Shown here piece after piece: positions 15,919-62,552 of a stretch of DNA of 64,000 nt (the stretch's first letter is position 1; every line of letters begins with the position of its first letter). The translations under genes were made by a program, and so were the position numbers. Below the pieces are notes generated by a model. That model did no database searches. It was given only the letters and a program-made list of their open reading frames with translations, and had not been told where the DNA came from. This DNA comes from Escherichia phage vB_EcoM_JQD51. The stretch is taken from the sequence record PV204681; one strand, 5' to 3'.

Positions 15919-18174
15919 TTAAAGCTTACAAGCAGAACAATCTTCAGCTTTAGGTGTTTCTAATTCATAGTCATCTGTACCTGACCCATCACGAGTGTTA
16001 TGATAGTAGAGGTTTTTTCCACCAAAGTACCAGAAGTAAAGCAGATCGTCAAGCATTACCGACATTGGCACTTTACCTTTCTCAAATACCGCAGGGTCAT
16101 AGTAAGTATTAGCAGAAGCAGATTGGCACACCCATTTCAACATGATAGCAACTTGGGTCAAATAAGGTTTATTACCTTTCTTAGCAAGTTTCCACGCGTA
16201 GTCATAAAGACCCACGTTATGTTCGATATTAGGAACAACCTGACGGAAGTTGCCTTCTTTAGATTCTTTAATACTTACTGGACCACGTGGGGGCTCAATC
16301 CCATTTGTAGAGTTCGATACTTGACTGCTTGACTCACAAGGCATGAGTGCAGACAACGTTGAGTTACGAATTCCATGTTCTTTGAGTTCAGCTCGAAGTT
16401 CTTCCCAGTCACAAACGTAGTTTGGAGCTGCGATTTGGTCAATCTTTTTATTGTACCAGTCGATAGGTAATTCGCCTCGAGACCATTTAGTGTCTGAATA
16501 ATACTCGCAAGGTCCTTTTTCTTCGGCCAACTTGATTGATGCTCGGATAAGCCCATATTGTAATCTCTCAAACAGTTCATGAGTTAAATCGTTTGCGTCT
16601 TCATAAGAAGCAAAGTTGCTTGCTAACCAAGCTGCATAGTTCGTAACACCAACACCCAGATTACGACGCTTTTTAGCTTTTAAAGCTTCTGGAACCGGAT
16701 AATCTTGATAGTCTAACAGGTTATCAAGTGCACGTACTTGTACTTCAGCAAGTTCATTAATTTTATCTTGGTCTTGCCAATCAAATTTATCTAATACAAA
16801 AGCAGATAATGTGCATAAACCAATTTCAGCATCGGGACCATTCACATCATTAGTTGGAATAGCGATTTCACAACATAAGTTACTCTGACGAATTGGAGCT
16901 TTTTCACGAATAAATGGTGTGAAGTTGTTAGTGTTATCAACGAACTGAGGATAAATTCGAGCAGTACCAGAACGTTCAGTCATGAACAATTCAAAGAGTT
17001 CTAGTGCTTTGATTCTTTTCTTTCTGATTGTCGGGTCTTTTTCAGCTTTCTCATAAAGCTCACGGAATTTATCTTGATCTTCAAAGAATGAGTAGTATAG
17101 TTCGCCTGACATTTCGTGAGGGCTAAATAAAGTAATATAATCATTTTTACCAAGGCGTTCCATCATAAGGTCATTAATCTGAATTCCGTAGTCCATATGT
17201 CGAATACGGTTTTCATCCACGCCTTTGTTATTTTTCAGAACTAATAGGTTCTCTACTTCTAAGTGCCACATCGGATAATACGCTGTAGCAGCACCACCAC
17301 GAATACCACCTTGAGAACAAGATTTTACTGCAGTTTGGAAATGTTTCCAGAACGGAATAACACCCGTATGTCGAACTTCGCCCATACCGATCTTAGAACC
17401 TTCTGCACGAAGCATACCAACGTTGATACCGATACCAGCTCGTTTAGAAATATATTCAATAATTGATGCTGAAGTTTTGTTAATAGATTTTAACGAATCA
17501 CCTGCTTCAATAACTACACAACTAGAGAACTGGCGAGTTGGAGTACGAGCACCCGCCATAATTGGGGTTGGCAATGAAACTTGATGAGTAGAAACGGCAT
17601 CATAAAAACGAATAATATGTTTCAAACGGTCATGAGTTTCGTCTTGGTGTAAGGCCATACCAATAGCCATGATAGCAAACTGTGGAGTTTCATAAATCTT
17701 CCCAGTTGTTTTATCTTTAACTAGATATTTTTCTTTAAGCTGCATAGCACCGGCATAAGTCAGGTCAAAGTCTCGTTCGTGTTTAATCTGTGAATCGAGA
17801 TAAATGATTTCTTCTGCTGAATATTGAGACAACAGCTCAGGGTCATATTTGCCTTCATTAACACAGTAAGAAATATGGTCGATAAAAGCAGGCGGTTCAA
17901 ACTGCCCGTATACATCTTTACGAAGTGCAAACATTAGTCCTTTAGCGGCGACATACTGATAATCAGGTTCTTCGACAGAAATCGAGTTAGCTGCAACTTT
18001 AATACAAATCTTCTGAATATCTTTGGTGCTCATCCCGTCGACAAGATGGAGTTTAATTTCTTCATATAATTCATATGGGTCAATTTGTGTTCCTTCACAT
18101 TGCCAAGTTAAGACTTGAATAATTTTCTGTGCATCAAAATTTTGGGATACCCCACTGCTCTTAGTTACTTGCAT
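15919..18174 (-). CDS. nrdA: Ribonucleotide reductase large (alpha) subunit
   Basis: 751-aa ORF; NLCCEIAIPT active-site region and C-terminal CxxC tail; T4 NrdA is 754 aa. Confidence 0.93.
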   Translation of the reverse strand: MQVTKSSGVSQNFDAQKIIQVLTWQCEGTQIDPYELYEEIKLHLVDGMSTKDIQKICIKVAANSISVEEPDYQYVAAKGLMFALRKDVYGQFEPPAFIDHISYCVNEGKYDPELLSQYSAEEIIYLDSQIKHERDFDLTYAGAMQLKEKYLVKDKTTGKIYETPQFAIMAIGMALHQDETHDRLKHIIRFYDAVSTHQVSLPTPIMAGARTPTRQFSSCVVIEAGDSLKSINKTSASIIEYISKRAGIGINVGMLRAEGSKIGMGEVRHTGVIPFWKHFQTAVKSCSQGGIRGGAATAYYPMWHLEVENLLVLKNNKGVDENRIRHMDYGIQINDLMMERLGKNDYITLFSPHEMSGELYYSFFEDQDKFRELYEKAEKDPTIRKKRIKALELFELFMTERSGTARIYPQFVDNTNNFTPFIREKAPIRQSNLCCEIAIPTNDVNGPDAEIGLCTLSAFVLDKFDWQDQDKINELAEVQVRALDNLLDYQDYPVPEALKAKKRRNLGVGVTNYAAWLASNFASYEDANDLTHELFERLQYGLIRASIKLAEEKGPCEYYSDTKWSRGELPIDWYNKKIDQIAAPNYVCDWEELRAELKEHGIRNSTLSALMPCESSSQVSNSTNGIEPPRGPVSIKESKEGNFRQVVPNIEHNVGLYDYAWKLAKKGNKPYLTQVAIMLKWVCQSASANTYYDPAVFEKGKVPMSVMLDDLLYFWYFGGKNLYYHNTRDGSGTDDYELETPKAEDCSACKL

Positions 18175-56856: not shown

Positions 56857-57233
56857 TATAATTTCCTCGATGGTTCACCCATATAAAGTTTTACAATACG
56901 TTCGCCTTCATCTTCGACGAGCTTTTCTTCATGTTTCTGGAATTCTTTAGCCATATTCTCTTCAAGAACATCCAGCCAATCTTCTGGACCGACACCATCG
57001 TCCCAGCTTTTAAACCATTTAACTATCTTGTTCATTCGCAGCTCCCTGAGCTTGAATCACAATCAGAATAACTTGACCCAGAATCACCAGACCAAGACGA
57101 TACGTATGAATGATTATAACTTGAAGAGCTTGAAGCAGACTTTGGACGAATAACTTCTTCCATCATGCCGTCACCAATGTATTCCCAAGCCTTTTCACGT
57201 GTATCAGGAATAGGCATCATACCTTCGCCTGGT

Positions 57234-57461
57234 TTAACAGCAAACAACTTCTTCAGCATCGTAAGCATTAATTGTTCCTCGAACAAAACGAACACCACCA
57301 TCATCCCAACGGATTTCGGCATTAAATTTGACGTCTTCATCATCCATCATGAATGAGTGTACGACTACGTCGTCATAATATCCAAGACCATATTTCAACG
57401 AAACTTCTTGAGCAATCAAAGCACCTAATGTGTTATTAGGTTTAATCCAACGATTTAACAT
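57234..57461 (-). CDS. Hypothetical protein (about 75 aa)
   Basis: ORF track 57234..57530, start trimmed to Met at 57461 with SD aggag downstream of early promoter. Confidence 0.45.
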   Translation of the reverse strand: MLNRWIKPNNTLGALIAQEVSLKYGLGYYDDVVVHSFMMDDEDVKFNAEIRWDDGGVRFVRGTINAYDAEEVVCC

Positions 57462-57526
57462 ATTGTTCTCCTCTTGAGTAAGTAATAATATCTTAACACA
57501 GTTTTTAGTGGTTGTAAACTGTAGAA

Positions 57527-57554
57527 ACAAAAAAAGGAATCCCGAAGGATTCCT
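57527..57554 (-). terminator. Intrinsic terminator after soc (AGGAAUCC-uucg-GGAUUCCU + U7)
   Basis: 8-bp inverted repeat 57535-57554, A-run 57527-57535. Confidence 0.8.
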
Positions 57555-57562
57555 TAAATTAT

Positions 57563-57799
57563 TTAACCACTTACTGGTGTAGGGGTAAACATTGCAGCGT
57601 TCTTAGTTTTCCAAGTTGCTGCATCAGAAACGACATCAGAATAAGCTGCCTTTTCTGACGGAAAGATTTGGTAATGAGAATCCGCAATCCGATGTTCGTT
57701 TGAATAAATCTCAAACGGTACAGAAACTTCCATACCTTTAACTTCTTTGCCTTCACCTGCAGGATGCGTAAAGGTTTTGATATTAACGTAACCACCCAT
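57563..57799 (-). CDS. soc: Soc small outer capsid protein
   Basis: 78-aa ORF (T4 Soc 80 aa); GYVNIKTF...HYQ.FPSEKAAYS collinear with T4 Soc; late promoter upstream. Confidence 0.88.
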   Translation of the reverse strand: MGGYVNIKTFTHPAGEGKEVKGMEVSVPFEIYSNEHRIADSHYQIFPSEKAAYSDVVSDAATWKTKNAAMFTPTPVSG

Positions 57800-57822
57800 A
57801 ATTAACTCCTTTGTTGTTTAAT

Positions 57823-57830
57823 TACAGGTG
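57823..57830 (-). promoter_or_regulatory. Late promoter TATAAATA for soc
   Basis: Plus tatttata = minus TATAAATA, 24 nt upstream of soc ATG. Confidence 0.65.
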
Positions 57831-57844
57831 TATTTATAACTTAA

Positions 57845-58366
57845 TCAGTAACCATTATCCTGGCGTTCAAAGTTGTGTTGGTTTTTCAAGTAGTAAAGTT
57901 TAAAGATTTCTTCAGCAGAAAGACCCAGACCTTGGAACATGTTCAGAACGAAGTGCAGAATATCAATCATCTCAAATTTAATTTCAAGCTGGTCTTCAGG
58001 AGACAGTTCATCGATACGACGATTACGATATTCAGCATGTTGTGCTTTCCACGGCTTCCATACAGAGCTAGCTGCTTTTTCACCATTGCTCATACCACCA
58101 AGTGAAGTCAACAGTTCACGGAATTCATCGTCAATATAATCTTTCTGATTACGCAGCCAGTCAACAACATCGCCAGCAGTGGCTAATTCATCAGGATGTT
58201 TGTTATGTTCAGGCTTGTCATTTGCCAGACGAACCTGTAAAGATTTCTGCATATCAAGCATTACCTGCAGAGGGTCTTTATCTTCGTGAATCAGGGCATT
58301 AAAATAAGCTTCTTCTGCTTTATCAACACCAGAAATAAGTTGTGAACATTCGTTAAAGTGCGCCAT
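57845..58366 (-). CDS. 56: gp56 dCTPase/dUTPase (MazG-like dCTP pyrophosphatase)
   Basis: ORF track 57845..58381, start at MAHFNEC (58366); collinear with T4 gp56 (171 aa). Confidence 0.9.
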   Translation of the reverse strand: MAHFNECSQLISGVDKAEEAYFNALIHEDKDPLQVMLDMQKSLQVRLANDKPEHNKHPDELATAGDVVDWLRNQKDYIDDEFRELLTSLGGMSNGEKAASSVWKPWKAQHAEYRNRRIDELSPEDQLEIKFEMIDILHFVLNMFQGLGLSAEEIFKLYYLKNQHNFERQDNGY

Positions 58367-58456
58367 TATTTTTCCTTTCAATTCAGTATAAGAGAGTTTA
58401 ATTCTAACATTAATTTTATAAAGCGTAATAAATAATAAGGTAACTAAGGAGATATT

Positions 58457-58654
58457 ATGTTTAAACTTCCATCGTTAATCAACGCTATTAAAGGCAATAA
58501 AAAGAAAACTGCTATCGCTGCAATAGTTGTAGGTGGCATTATTTCATGGAACTTCGGGATTGCGCCATTGTTAGTTGCCCATGGTATTATAGTTCCTTCT
58601 GTTCCATTGGATACTGTAGTTGATTTGGCCTTTGCTATTATAGGACTTGTTTAA
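58457..58654 (+). CDS. Small predicted membrane protein (65 aa, two hydrophobic segments), opposite strand to flanking genes
   Basis: Strong SD (taaggag, 7 nt before ATG); hydrophobic AIAAIVVGGIISW / VVDLAFAIIGLV segments; sits in the 56-61 intergenic space. Confidence 0.5.
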   Translation: MFKLPSLINAIKGNKKKTAIAAIVVGGIISWNFGIAPLLVAHGIIVPSVPLDTVVDLAFAIIGLV

Positions 58655-59673
58655 ATCTTCGAATAACGAGATAATCTCATTTTAGCATGCAACCCACTTG
58701 AAATATTCTGTTTCATATATTCTAAAATTTCTTGTGGTGTTGCATTTTCTTTCATTACCATATCATTCACATCCTTTGAACTCCATGGAGCTCTATCCCA
58801 GAACATAACACGTTCGCCTGCATCTACTAATCGCTTCATACGAGCTATAGTATCCGGATGCCTAGGTTCATTATCCATCACCCATACCCGACGTTCTTTA
58901 AATGGTACCACATCTAAATCTATTGAGCCGCCTGTAATAGCGATTGCATTGGGTATGAATAAACTATCAATAGGGCCTTCCATTACCCAGACGTCTCCTT
59001 CCTTAACACGTTCAACACCATAAATTTTTGTTGCAGACTCAAACGCTTTAATAGTGATATATTTCTGAGGAGCATCTTTACGAAGTGCACGTCCTTGGAA
59101 TGACTCGGCCTTCCCGTCTTTATTAAAAATAGGAATCACTAAACGTGGTTCGGGAATCTCTTTCTTATACGTACCAGGTTGAATCTTGTTGACCAATTTA
59201 GGCCATTCTAATGTGAACCATAATCTGTTCCATGATTCTTTAGGAATGCATCGAGACTTAACATATTTCACAATAGGATGCTCTTCAGGCAGCTTGTCCA
59301 GACGAGAACAAGACGGCAAAGAATTTATAGTCTTTTTCTCCGGTTCTGGTTTATGTTCAGGAACCTTTTCAATCTTTGGTTCCATTCTAGCTTTTTCTTT
59401 ACGAACTTCCATTAGATATTCACGATAAAGCTCTTCGTCATACTCTTTTAAGTATCCGGAAATCGTATTATGATATTGACAGTTATAGCAATGCACATTA
59501 CCTGGAGTACCGCCATAATACCAACCGCGAGCTTTCATTGCATCTGTCTGGGAGTCGCCACAAACTGGACAACGAAATGTTAATTTAAATGTGCTTGAAT
59601 TATTGATTTGTCTAAAACGAGGTAGGTGAGAAAACGCACGATAAGCAAATTCATTATCTATCCATTCAGCCAT
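58651..59673 (-). CDS. 61: gp61 DNA primase
   Basis: 340-aa ORF (T4 342 aa); zinc-ribbon CPVCGD...CYNC and TOPRIM region. Confidence 0.92.
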   Translation of the reverse strand: MAEWIDNEFAYRAFSHLPRFRQINNSSTFKLTFRCPVCGDSQTDAMKARGWYYGGTPGNVHCYNCQYHNTISGYLKEYDEELYREYLMEVRKEKARMEPKIEKVPEHKPEPEKKTINSLPSCSRLDKLPEEHPIVKYVKSRCIPKESWNRLWFTLEWPKLVNKIQPGTYKKEIPEPRLVIPIFNKDGKAESFQGRALRKDAPQKYITIKAFESATKIYGVERVKEGDVWVMEGPIDSLFIPNAIAITGGSIDLDVVPFKERRVWVMDNEPRHPDTIARMKRLVDAGERVMFWDRAPWSSKDVNDMVMKENATPQEILEYMKQNISSGLHAKMRLSRYSKI

Positions 59674-59712
59674 AGTATTCTCCAGAGGCCTTAAATTAAT
59701 AAGGCCATCATA

Positions 59713-60207
59713 TCACAACTTATTAATATTTACTTTAATTCGCTTTCTTTTCTTGGAAGGAATTTGTTCTGGACCTTTATTTACGACTGCACCTGTAGTT
59801 GTTCCTGATGCAATAGCTTGAGGACTACCGCCTGAATCACCAGCAACCATATCCTCAAATAAAGGGAGTTCTTTAAATATTTCTTTCTGTTGTTCTTCCG
59901 TAATGTTATAGCGTGAAGCTACAGCACTCCAGGCAGACATCATTGAGGCCATTCCATTAAGACCTGGAACAGTGCTCATCATTCGCTTCATTGAACGAAC
60001 TGAAGCATGAAAAGGTGTATACGCAGCTTTCTCTTCGGGAGTAGAAGGACGTTTAAGAACACTTCCACGTTCATCGATGATTTTGGCTTCGTATGCTTTC
60101 CATTCGGTAAAAGGTTTTTGCATTAGTCGAATAAACTTATATGCATAAACAGAATCTATTGCAGTGTTAATAATACCCATAGGTACCTCCTGAGTATATT
60201 TAATCAA
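59713..60207 (-). CDS. Hypothetical protein (61.1 position)
   Basis: 164-aa ORF. Confidence 0.45.
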   Translation of the reverse strand: MIKYTQEVPMGIINTAIDSVYAYKFIRLMQKPFTEWKAYEAKIIDERGSVLKRPSTPEEKAAYTPFHASVRSMKRMMSTVPGLNGMASMMSAWSAVASRYNITEEQQKEIFKELPLFEDMVAGDSGGSPQAIASGTTTGAVVNKGPEQIPSKKRKRIKVNINKL

Positions 60208-60398: not shown

Positions 60399-61058
60399 TT
60401 AACCTCGATTCATAAATGCATTAAATATTTGGTCATCAACAGAAATTTCTAATTCGACTTCAATTGTTTCAGCCTTTTCTTCAGGTGGTAATTCGTATCC
60501 ACACACTACAATTTTTTCATCGATATCAAAATATACAGAAGCAATACGATTAATGTTACTTTCAGTTAAGTCTAAATCAACATCAACATCTTTTTGACCT
60601 ACACTTAAAGGATAACTAATACGGGTTATTTTATTATCTTTAACAAAGAGTCCACCAACATACTCTGTACTACGTTTGAAGTTTACACGTTTCCGAATTG
60701 AAAGATATGATACATCTTTACCGTGAGCTCGGCTCATAGGACATAATGAATAGCTAGAATATGAGATGTCAAATCCTACACCTTCAATATGAGCCAACGT
60801 GTCATGAGTAAACCAATTATAATCATATGCCAAATCCATTATATTGTAATATGTGAAAGGCACAGGATTAACATCATACGTTGTACCTTTAAAATCTGCC
60901 CAGGCAACGATTTCGTTATCTTTAACAATTACAAAAATTACACCAATATGGTATCCGTTATTATTTTCATTCGGCGTTATATTATAACATTGTGCATTAG
61001 GAAATTTACCATATTTAAACGGCGCGTTTTTGTGCATGTAATAAATCATATTATTCAC
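60399..61058 (-). CDS. Hypothetical protein (61.2 position)
   Basis: 219-aa ORF. Confidence 0.45.
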   Translation of the reverse strand: MNNMIYYMHKNAPFKYGKFPNAQCYNITPNENNNGYHIGVIFVIVKDNEIVAWADFKGTTYDVNPVPFTYYNIMDLAYDYNWFTHDTLAHIEGVGFDISYSSYSLCPMSRAHGKDVSYLSIRKRVNFKRSTEYVGGLFVKDNKITRISYPLSVGQKDVDVDLDLTESNINRIASVYFDIDEKIVVCGYELPPEEKAETIEVELEISVDDQIFNAFMNRG

Positions 61059-61344
61059 CTGTGATTTCGGTTACGATATCTTTGTTATCGAAATTAGGGT
61101 CACAATACAAAACATAATTGTATTGCATGATACCGCCAGACTTAAGTTGTTCAACAACTTTATTAACCATATTAGGACGGTCTCGTTTAGTGATGTTCAT
61201 GATATCAGAGAAGATTTGTTGTTCAACATCTTCTTGATTTGCAGTCATTGACCACTCACAGAGGTCTTTATCATAACCTGCTGTAACTGGAGCTGGTGCA
61301 CATGATACTGCAAGTAAGATTGCTGCCAATGATAACTTTTTCAT
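61051..61344 (-). CDS. sp: Spackle periplasmic protein (superinfection exclusion / gp5 lysozyme inhibitor)
   Basis: 97-aa ORF (T4 Sp 97 aa); signal peptide then AGYDKDLCEWSMTA...SGG.MQYNYVLYCD collinear with T4. Confidence 0.88.
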   Translation of the reverse strand: MKKLSLAAILLAVSCAPAPVTAGYDKDLCEWSMTANQEDVEQQIFSDIMNITKRDRPNMVNKVVEQLKSGGIMQYNYVLYCDPNFDNKDIVTEITGE

Positions 61345-61373
61345 TTTAACTCCTTAGTTGATTTGATAGGACT

Positions 61374-61403
61374 ACTATACTATAGTCCATCTATAATGTA
61401 AAC
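61374..61403 (-). promoter_or_regulatory. Early promoter for sp with dyad GGACTA...TAGTCC
   Basis: Plus actata (61374-61379) / gtaaac (61398-61403), 18-nt spacer. Confidence 0.5.
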
Positions 61404-61407
61404 AAGT

Positions 61408-61656
61408 TTATTCTTTTTCGCGAATAATAATTACTTGTTGAGGCTGCTGAGCAGATTTCTTTTCGGCAACGATAGACCAAATTAAAGTTCCAATCCAACC
61501 AACCATCGTCCAGTTAAAGAGTAAAGATACAAAGAAGATTGCTGTTGTGCTTTTTGTGCCACGAATAAGTGCGATTACCCAAGGCAACATGTAAATGATG
61601 ATTGAACCAATACCTGCGATTAAAACTGCTACTGAACTAGCTACGAATAATTCCAT
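61408..61656 (-). CDS. Small integral membrane protein (Imm/superinfection-immunity-like topology)
   Basis: 82-aa ORF, two TM segments with GW..GTLIWS motif. Confidence 0.45.
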   Translation of the reverse strand: MELFVASSVAVLIAGIGSIIIYMLPWVIALIRGTKSTTAIFFVSLLFNWTMVGWIGTLIWSIVAEKKSAQQPQQVIIIREKE

Positions 61657-61717
61657 GTTAATTTCCTCTTGATTTGTTATGTTTATAGTATCTTATTTTA
61701 ACTTTGGTGTAAACCAA

Positions 61718-62086
61718 TTAATTAAATTTGTTTAAACGTTCAATACACTGGACGTAGTTATTAGCGATTTGTTTCTGGGAAGGCTCTTTACCAGTTGTTT
61801 CAACATAGCGAATGAATGCGATTTCAGTAGCCTGTAAGCAATGTTCTTTAACGCGTTGTTCTTTTGATAATGCTACAGTATCAGAGTCACGATAACGTTG
61901 AGCATGGGCATCAGCTTGAATCATTCGATTACCTACAGTAACCGGGTCTTCCACTTCAACTTTAGGTTGGTTGTACTGTTTAACATTCGGATTGTAAATC
62001 AGTTGGCCAACGTTATTAGGGATAAAGCCGTGGGCACCACATCCGGTTAATCCAAATACCATTGCTAAAGCGATTAATTTTTTCAT
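61718..62086 (-). CDS. Putative lipoprotein
   Basis: 122-aa ORF; signal peptide with lipobox LTGC. Confidence 0.5.
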   Translation of the reverse strand: MKKLIALAMVFGLTGCGAHGFIPNNVGQLIYNPNVKQYNQPKVEVEDPVTVGNRMIQADAHAQRYRDSDTVALSKEQRVKEHCLQATEIAFIRYVETTGKEPSQKQIANNYVQCIERLNKFN

Positions 62087-62146
62087 TTCAATTTCCTCTG
62101 TAGTTGATAGAAAGATAGTAACACAGTATGTGGGGCTTGTAAACAG

Positions 62147-62359
62147 TTATTTTAAACTTTTGCGAAATTTGCGTTTTTCTTGACGAATCTGTCGTTTAGT
62201 CGGACGTACAGCAAATTTAACGAAGTCCACTTTGCCGTGTGGAAACTTTTCAGATGCTTCACAGTCCATCATTAGTTCCCATCCTTCCAGAATAAGAGCT
62301 TTCCATTGTGTAGTTGATGCAAATTCGTATGTTGATGGTTTAAACACAGTTGAATACAT
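62147..62359 (-). CDS. Hypothetical protein with basic C-terminus
   Basis: ORF track 62147..62422, start trimmed to Met at 62359 so it does not overlap dmd. Confidence 0.4.
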   Translation of the reverse strand: MYSTVFKPSTYEFASTTQWKALILEGWELMMDCEASEKFPHGKVDFVKFAVRPTKRQIRQEKRKFRKSLK

Positions 62360-62360
62360 A

Positions 62361-62552
62361 TTATCCTCTGAAATCAGCTTCAAAAACTTTCTCGTCATTA
62401 ACAAATGCTTTAACAAGTGCACTGTTCACTTCAGCGAGTTGTACAGCAACCCACTCGATTTCTTCACGGTCACCTGATAACATGATATCTTTAGTGAACA
62501 TCTCACCACTTTTAAACCAACCAATAAAAGTAACTTTAGTTAATTTGCTCAT
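62361..62552 (-). CDS. dmd: Dmd antitoxin (discriminator of mRNA degradation; inhibitor of RnlA/LsoA toxins)
   Basis: ORF track 62361..62573, start at MSKLTKV (62552, SD gagga); FIGWFK...MFTK...EVN.ALVKAF collinear with T4 Dmd (60 aa). Confidence 0.8.
   Translation of the reverse strand: MSKLTKVTFIGWFKSGEMFTKDIMLSGDREEIEWVAVQLAEVNSALVKAFVNDEKVFEADFRG

Follow-up and report, generated by a model that had tools for sequence, protein, structure and literature searches.

The short interval between gene 56 and the primase gene 61 of Escherichia phage vB_EcoM_JQD51 (PV204681) holds a genuine protein-coding gene under purifying selection, a 65-codon open reading frame (ORF) that runs against the surrounding genes. 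We consider it very probable that this gene is real, late and membrane-associated and, jointly with the whole of the explanation given below, that it is a vertically inherited T-even gene. It is an ordinary conserved phage ORFan and not a new one: related phages carry it as an annotated coding sequence, and T4 itself carries it without annotation.

The stretch of DNA that we analysed, 64,000 nucleotides long and called the window here, is of the Mosigvirus, RB69/JS09 type (megablast; 97.1-97.6% identity to the 30 best-matching complete genomes). Reading positions 57200-59900 and listing their ORFs confirmed the coordinates and anatomy of the ORF, gene 56 and gene 61 (Table 1). A preliminary description of this DNA had drawn a 56-61 interval of about 285 bp containing only a plus-strand ORF of 65 codons, with an excellent Shine-Dalgarno sequence, divergent from gene 56 and convergent with gene 61 with overlapping stops, and this picture held throughout. 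The interval spans 58367-58650 (284 bp), the ORF is its sole gene, AAGGAG precedes the ATG by 5 nt, and the ORF TAA (58652-58654) shares the palindrome TTAA with the complement of the gene 61 stop, a 4-nt overlap. The product of 65 amino acids reads MFKLPSLINAIKGNKKKTAIAAIVVGGIISWNFGIAPLLVAHGIIVPSVPLDTVVDLAFAIIGLV. A 97.6%-identical genome has 21 annotated coding sequences in the corresponding stretch, of which the ORF alone is on the plus strand. The short interval is the standard Mosigvirus layout, equivalent to that of T4 minus dam.

Table 1. Features of the gene 56-gene 61 region in the window, with the basis of each assignment.
Feature	Position	Strand	Basis
soc	57563-57799	-	Pfam/PHROG and annotation of 97%-identical genomes
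Gene 56, dCTPase, divergent neighbour	57845-58366	-	phrog_173 (E 1.6e-45), Pfam dUTPase_2, relatives' annotation
Gene 56 ATG	58364-58366	-	Sequence
Putative MotA-type middle promoter of gene 56	58401-58427	-	Similarity to T4 P(M)16.53
AATAAATA, putative gp55-type late promoter, A(-13) variant, 22 nt 5' of ATG	58427-58434	+	Sequence
Shine-Dalgarno AAGGAG, 5 nt 5' of ATG	58446-58451	+	Sequence
65-aa CDS, RB69ORF029w-type small membrane protein, phrog_2024 type A	58457-58654	+	ORF list, PHROG
TTAA stop/stop overlap of ORF and gene 61	58651-58654	both	Sequence, ORF list
Gene 61 stop	58651-58653	-	Sequence
Gene 61, DNA primase, convergent neighbour	58651-59673	-	phrog_47 (E 3.8e-102), relatives' annotation
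61.1	59713-60207	-	Pfam/PHROG and annotation of 97%-identical genomes

We found that the ORF matched phrog_2024 over its full length (E 1.9e-27; residues 1-65 of the 65-position profile), that 10 out of 10 diverse relatives matched the same profile, and that homologues were present in 858 phage records (tblastn). A 100%-identical protein is encoded in several deposited phage genomes on the same strand, at the same length and between the same neighbours (56 and 61). The corresponding CDS of one relative, JS09_0153, bears the note "RB69ORF029w hypothetical protein", and the S143_2 and SSE1 records label the ORF "hypothetical protein". The gene itself is therefore already known: the window ORF is RB69ORF029w/phrog_2024, from which it does not differ. 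Our literature search found no paper that names RB69ORF029w, and the literature on T4 ribosome profiling, unannotated ORFs and antisense transcription start sites yielded nothing specific to the ORF. Codon alignments analysed by the Nei-Gojobori method revealed 9 synonymous changes to 1 non-synonymous change relative to S143_2 (dN/dS 0.03) and 13 to 4 relative to phiE142 (dN/dS 0.085); the remaining close pairs gave 0.15-0.16, for a whole range of 0.03-0.16. At 72% amino-acid identity the synonymous sites are saturated (pS 0.78 versus pN 0.16).

The family is confined to one group of phages in the databases that we searched. A profile search of 5.8 billion proteins returned about 120 phrog_2024-family clusters, all of 51-74 aa and most of 63-69; clusters with long contigs came from assemblies of about 160-175 kb, and every named record was either a T4-like enterobacterial phage or a bacterial assembly with such a phage in it. 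An HMM search of 1.84 billion representatives gave six matches (family representatives, truncated fragments and one C-to-T-converted artefact) and no member outside the T4-like phage group, and a scan of IMG/VR gave seven loci only, all Mosigvirus or Tequatrovirus. No paralogue of the ORF was found elsewhere in the 64-kb window. In one 61-aa 'homologue', P0040 (Logan assemblies SRR27475519 and SRR27475520), nearly all differences from the T4 protein are A>V, S>F/L, P>L and T>I changes; this is the signature of C-to-T-converted reads (for example, a bisulfite or enzymatic-conversion spike-in), and P0040 is a database artefact and no true variant.

The preliminary description had implied that the opposite-strand gene distinguishes this phage from T4, which proved incorrect. 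T4 carries the same gene, 66 codons long and 54% identical, between dam and 61 (NC_000866.4, 17738-17938, plus strand; L004 3239-3439), with an AAGGAGG Shine-Dalgarno sequence, a GATAAATA box at 17709-17716 (21 nt upstream) and the same TTAA overlap with gene 61. It is annotated neither in NC_000866.4 nor in the original 1984 entry, X01416. The JS10 counterpart, a type-B form (MGSIFYQIWKL...) in the 291-bp gap beside gene 61, is also unannotated (NC_012741.1, 15341-15541, plus strand; L024 2229-2429). Because T4 has the same gene, we regard the ORF as an ancestral fixed neighbour of gene 61 and no peculiarity of this phage. The T4 order in NC_000866.4 is soc, segF, 56, dam, a 309-bp "empty" gap and 61, with oriA marked in the 5' end of gene 56, such that the divergent neighbour of the ORF is dam in T4 and gene 56 in the window phage. 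The arrangement that the preliminary description gave for T4, with 69/oriA, segF and dam between 56 and 61, was thus right for dam but not for segF (formerly gene 69), whose place is between 56 and soc, or for oriA, which is marked inside the 5' end of 56. The contrast with T4 in this interval therefore shrinks to the missing dam.

The proposed absence of dam and of segF was borne out. T4 Dam had no tblastn match at E <= 0.5 in the window, T4 SegF had none below E 0.5, and the gap between soc and gene 56 is only 45 bp. Dam also had no match at E <= 1 in the complete Mosigvirus genome mar005p1, which aligns to the window in blocks of 94-97% identity, a few short or unaligned stretches excepted; the only SegF-like match in that genome is weak (E 0.002) and lies away from the locus, at 105 kb. 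Another type of dam, located between nrdA and nrdB in phage fDHCT2, is missing as well. Separately, GATC is uniquely depleted among the 16 four-base palindromes in the window, with 50 copies against about 202 expected (observed/expected 0.25), and mar005p1 has 118 against 582 in its complete genome. GATC is thus avoided in the Dam-less Mosigvirus; in T4, a 5-kb stretch with dam inside it has a like trend (6 versus 17). Avoidance of GATC in enterobacterial phages was reportedly described by McClelland in 1985.

In seven Tevenvirinae genera the ORF family lies on the strand opposite to gene 61 and abuts its 3' end: Mosigvirus (the window and close relatives), Tequatrovirus (T4), Gaprivervirus (VR20), Moonvirus (CF1), Jiaodavirus (KP1079 and KMI12), Gelderlandvirus (NP4) and Dhakavirus (JS10). 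The 4-nt TTAA overlap with gene 61 recurs in T4, CF1, NP4, JS10 and the phage at locus L019, whereas Jiaodavirus and the lineage of locus L017 have no overlap and instead an 18-nt gap with a G+C hairpin. The family is absent 3' of gene 61 in Karamvirus myPSH1140, Slopekvirus KP15, Krischvirus ELT3, Tulanevirus IME13 and Acinetobacter phage Melin, all of which except myPSH1140 fall outside Tevenvirinae, and the gene is for this reason not part of the T4-like core. At the promoter side of the ORF the cargo varies, from nothing (Mosigvirus, Gaprivervirus and Gelderlandvirus) to dam (T4), a homing endonuclease (KP1079), two small ORFs (CF1) or a 1.5-kb ORF (KMI12). Endonuclease genes lie between 56 and 61 in KP1079 (L007 1708-2262) and in Krischvirus ELT3 (L027 2247-2810). 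In the close relative Shigella phage SSE1, about 650 bp are inserted at gene 56 (L003 1848-3020), where one CDS of 1173 nt, annotated as a 'homing endonuclease', replaces the dCTPase gene of 522 nt; we found no similarity between this product and T4 SegF. Considering these insertions, the 56-61 junction looks like an insertion hot spot.

A possible late-type element just upstream of the ORF had also been suggested, and the region contains one: AATAAATA lies 22 nt before the ATG, and a matching box was found in every genus examined. T4-type late genes carry their box about one helical turn upstream of the start site. In the window, as at T4 late genes, a TATAAATA-type box stands just ahead of the ribosome-binding site. 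Geiduschek and Kassavetis listed 50 T4 late promoters, of which 32 are perfect and 9 have A at -13, the commonest natural variant and the one seen here (PMC2988020). Homologues in Tequatro-, Gapriver-, Dhaka-, Moon-, Jiaoda- and Gelderlandvirus have NATAAATA or ATTAAATA 12-33 nt 5' of the ATG. Each lineage's box is one or two bases off TATAAATA and lies directly ahead of a strong Shine-Dalgarno sequence, with AGGAGG or AAGGAG kept at the same place in all homologues examined. The box reads AATAAATA in the window, KMI12 and JS10, GATAAATA in T4 and KP1079, CATAAATA in VR20, L017 and KP1079, and ATTAAATA in CF1 and NP4. We read the upstream sequence in nine genomes and found no perfect TATAAATA there; the promoter could accordingly be a weak one, or transcription of the gene could start at another site.

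The distribution of such boxes in the window supports the assignment. ATAAATA is depleted, with 15 copies on both strands against 27.8+-4.6 in shuffles. Besides the ORF's own copy, 6 of the other 14 lie 14-45 nt before an ORF start, five of these being 20-31 nt before a start with a recognisable Shine-Dalgarno sequence. Perfect TATAAATA sequences stand 20-31 nt before ORFs resembling genes 34, 36, t and soc, which we take to be likely late genes from their length and from T4 sequence, and the box spacing at the ORF resembles that at these likely late genes. A chance box at the right place is unlikely given that ATAAATA is depleted and that several of the remaining copies sit before gene starts. 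Examples of ATAAATA sites are 24654, 29734 and 34186 on the plus strand and 57838 on the minus strand; GATAAATA and CATAAATA variants also precede the 751-aa nrdA ORF and a 253-aa ORF. These features of the upstream sequence lend good support to late gp55-dependent transcription of the ORF as the probable mode of its expression. For T4, a dRNA-seq study reported 150 transcription start sites, 22 of them antisense (bioRxiv 10.1101/2024.04.04.588121).

On the minus strand, gene 56 is preceded by TACGCTT (58427-58421), a 14-nt spacer, TAGAAT (58406-58401) and then the leader gaattgaaaggaaaa. T4 P(M)16.53, annotated in X01416, reads ATTGCTT, 14 nt and TATAAT, with the same spacing and downstream leader, and we propose the window sequence as a putative MotA-type middle promoter for gene 56. 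This promoter and the plus-strand late box are apparently back-to-back (58401-58434) with base 58427 in common. At the other end of the ORF, we found no terminator-like site near the junction with gene 61 in the window and no terminator or hairpin at the TTAA junction of T4. RNA folding of four stretches at the junction gave structures no better than those of shuffles, and the translation initiation region of the ORF is unstructured (z = 0.49). Since the junction has neither a terminator nor a stable RNA structure, transcription should continue past it from either side: antisense over the ORF in early transcripts of gene 61, and antisense into gene 61 in the late transcript of the ORF.

The two hydrophobic segments that had been noticed in the product correspond to Kyte-Doolittle peaks at approximately residues 26-32 and 52-56, with moderate hydrophobicity (19-residue mean 1.3-2.0). 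An AF2 model built from a 12-sequence alignment (mean pLDDT 79) has helices at 3-11, 15-41 and 51-62, the last two separated by a Pro-rich coil (42-50). The charge is +5 over the N-terminal 17 residues and -2 over the C-terminal 24, which have no basic residue and a hydrophobic end; by the positive-inside rule, an N-in, C-out orientation is predicted. The second hydrophobic segment, which holds P47, P50, D52 and D56, is too short and too polar to be a confident second span, and helix 51-62 of the model is probably interfacial or re-entrant. The topology is uncertain between one transmembrane helix plus an interfacial helix and a two-transmembrane hairpin. A cleavable signal peptide was rejected by inference, as L-V-A would make a poor -3/-1 site and the hydrophobic stretch extends over 24 residues. 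Searches of Pfam, NCBIfam and PDB sequences with the single sequence and a 10-member alignment returned nothing credible: the best matches (COX7B, Syndecan, Ldr, TrbJ and YejA; E 0.007-0.1) were rejected because they involved one member each or a weak profile match. A BFVD fold search of viral structures with the AF2 model recovered family members only.

Across 28 diverse members W31, N32 and P37 are invariant (28/28), and A39, G43, P47 and G63 are at least 90% conserved. By their N-termini the proteins fall into three sequence types: A (MxKL..AIKGNKK; the window, T4 and VR20), B (MGTxFYQIWKL; JS10, in tandem with A in L017, L019 and ESCO47, and decayed in VR20) and C (MSE...; Moon-, Jiaoda- and Gelderlandvirus). 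The window has type A only. The tandem plus-strand paralogues run B then A in L017 (2805-3008 and 3001-3198) and A then B in L019 (267-464 and 473-673), and ESCO47_00130/00131 form a further pair. The B copy of VR20 is broken (L005 ~2700-2905), its start reading ATG TGA and a shorter internal ORF being left.

We commit to reading the product as a late, low-dose inner-membrane envelope protein; as to its function, which is a guess, the likeliest arenas are lysis timing, exclusion and counter-defence. The ORF, the only gene on the plus strand inside an early-gene block and parked tail-to-tail against gene 61, would be silent early, while the minus strand is read through it. Late in infection gp55-RNA polymerase would transcribe it from the sub-consensus AATAAATA box, and the strong Shine-Dalgarno sequence would allow efficient translation. 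The product would insert N-in into the inner membrane, with a Lys-rich cytoplasmic stub (+5), one long kinked helix (15-41) bearing the invariant W31-N32-x4-P37, then a Pro-rich turn and a short acidic/hydrophobic C-terminal helix (51-62) at or re-entering the periplasmic face. Its mRNA, with no terminator at TTAA, would run antisense into gene 61. We guess that the protein has a late, dose-limited role at the envelope, for example in adjusting the timing of lysis, the integrity of the membrane or exclusion, and that it acts via intramembrane or periplasm-proximal contacts of the conserved W-N...P...G...P...[D/E] motif. Any single specific function that might be named for it is distinctly improbable.

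Two alternatives would place the importance of the locus in its nucleic acid. The ORF could be a chance open frame in an AT-rich spacer whose conserved parts are DNA or RNA signals, namely the gene 56 promoter and the gene 61 3' end: the interval does hold a likely middle promoter for gene 56, 65 open codons in AT-rich DNA are not astronomically rare, and the RefSeq annotators of T4 and JS10 left the ORF uncalled. However, the purifying selection is frame-specific at the dN/dS values given above, the protein is kept while synonymous divergence is saturated, W-N...P is invariant through all three sequence types, the strong Shine-Dalgarno sequence is conserved, tandem paralogues are known and the RNA structure is not significant. 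We reject this explanation, which is effectively refuted and has next to no probability left. It is also very unlikely that RNA is the main product, with an unterminated late plus-strand transcript antisense to gene 61 helping to shut off primase and early mRNAs and the peptide being secondary. The junction without terminator or hairpin, in the window as in T4, would suit such a role, and T4 transcribes both strands at some sites at different times (PMC2988020), but selection acts on the amino-acid sequence itself, and Jiaodavirus and the L017 lineage retain the gene despite a hairpin that would stop antisense read-through; a purely RNA-level role is disfavoured by both observations.

Other alternatives name a function for the envelope protein. 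A holin, pinholin or antiholin-type lysis-timing protein, which would oligomerise or bind the T holin, is decidedly doubtful. As in holins (T4 T, class II/III), the product is small, predicted to be late and membrane-embedded; the first transmembrane segment of its Mosigvirus form is Gly/Ala-rich (AIAAIVVGGIIS), a dose-sensitive product would suit a sub-consensus promoter, and some records are labelled 'putative holin' or 'Holin'. Those names, however, were given by submitters or automatically, no evidence being stated, and we regard the "holin" labels of these few records as unsupported. No holin family matches in Pfam (E <= 10) or NCBIfam (E <= 1), and no lysis gene is adjacent. Holins have at least one transmembrane domain and a highly charged hydrophilic C-terminal domain; a transmembrane helix is predicted here, but the C-terminus is hydrophobic and acidic, with the charge at the N-terminus. 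With neither profile similarity nor a charged C-terminal domain, and from outside the lysis cassette, the product was rejected as a member of the holins. The phage, moreover, apparently has its own T-type holin, a 219-aa ORF at about 34.2 kb behind a perfect TATAAATA, which we take to be the counterpart of T4 holin t from its length and from T4 sequence. Hardly better are the prospects of a late membrane factor for exclusion or counter-defence, one that keeps secondary DNA from entering or counters a host abortive-infection effector acting at the membrane. T4 Imm, Sp and RI are likewise small membrane or periplasmic T-even proteins, and the envelope/exclusion genes sp, imm and imm.1 lie beyond gene 61, imm and sp being within 3 kb on its side away from the ORF. 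The ORF also diverges rapidly (54% identity between T4 and this phage, compared with 73% for gp61), and its accessory distribution and paralogue gain and loss are also typical of host-interaction genes. The genes of Imm, Sp and RI, however, lie on the early strand and are active early, or both early and late, and known T4 exclusion proteins are early, whereas late expression is predicted for the ORF; the ORF product has no detectable homology to Imm, Sp or RI (for Imm and Sp, no paralogue in the window) and a different helix architecture. Genes 61 and 41 are separated in this phage by 61.1, 61.2, sp, imm, imm.1, 61.4 and dmd (window 60399-62422); on the T4 map as we take it to be, imm and imm.1 lie near genes 42 and 43, and if so, imm and imm.1 are beside spackle in this phage, with the two exclusion genes clustered. 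Type I toxins (Hok, Ldr and TisB) resemble the ORF product in being short N-in hydrophobic peptides with opposite-strand transcription over a gene; they differ in that the ORF is a predicted phage late gene with a strong exposed Shine-Dalgarno sequence and no dedicated antisense sRNA. Membership of the Hok/Ldr-like toxins is not supported, the single Ldr_toxin match (E 0.1, 1 of 10 members) being noise and the initiation region unstructured.

For this phage itself the significance is very small, as the ORF is routinely annotated as a hypothetical protein of RB69-type phages. What is mildly novel is the annotation gap in T4 and JS10, the conserved sub-consensus late promoter and the fixed junction with the primase gene; the A, B and C sequence types and the topology model are further additions to knowledge of the RB69ORF029w family. 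The reference annotations of T4 (NC_000866.4) and JS10 (NC_012741.1) miss a conserved, selected and probably late-expressed gene, which is easily fixed. As an opposite-strand, Tevenvirinae-conserved predicted late membrane protein, it is a reasonable candidate for knockout in T4, with lysis timing, lysis inhibition and exclusion as the phenotypes of interest. A bolder reading, which we think unlikely but worth stating as one joint claim, is that the family, T4 copy included, is an unrecognised late inner-membrane part of T-even envelope control that acts via the W-N...P...G...P...[D/E] motif, either as an extra regulator of holin triggering or lysis inhibition or as a late exclusion or anti-abortive-infection factor. 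If this were true, the best-studied lytic phage would still be missing one player from its lysis or exclusion circuitry.
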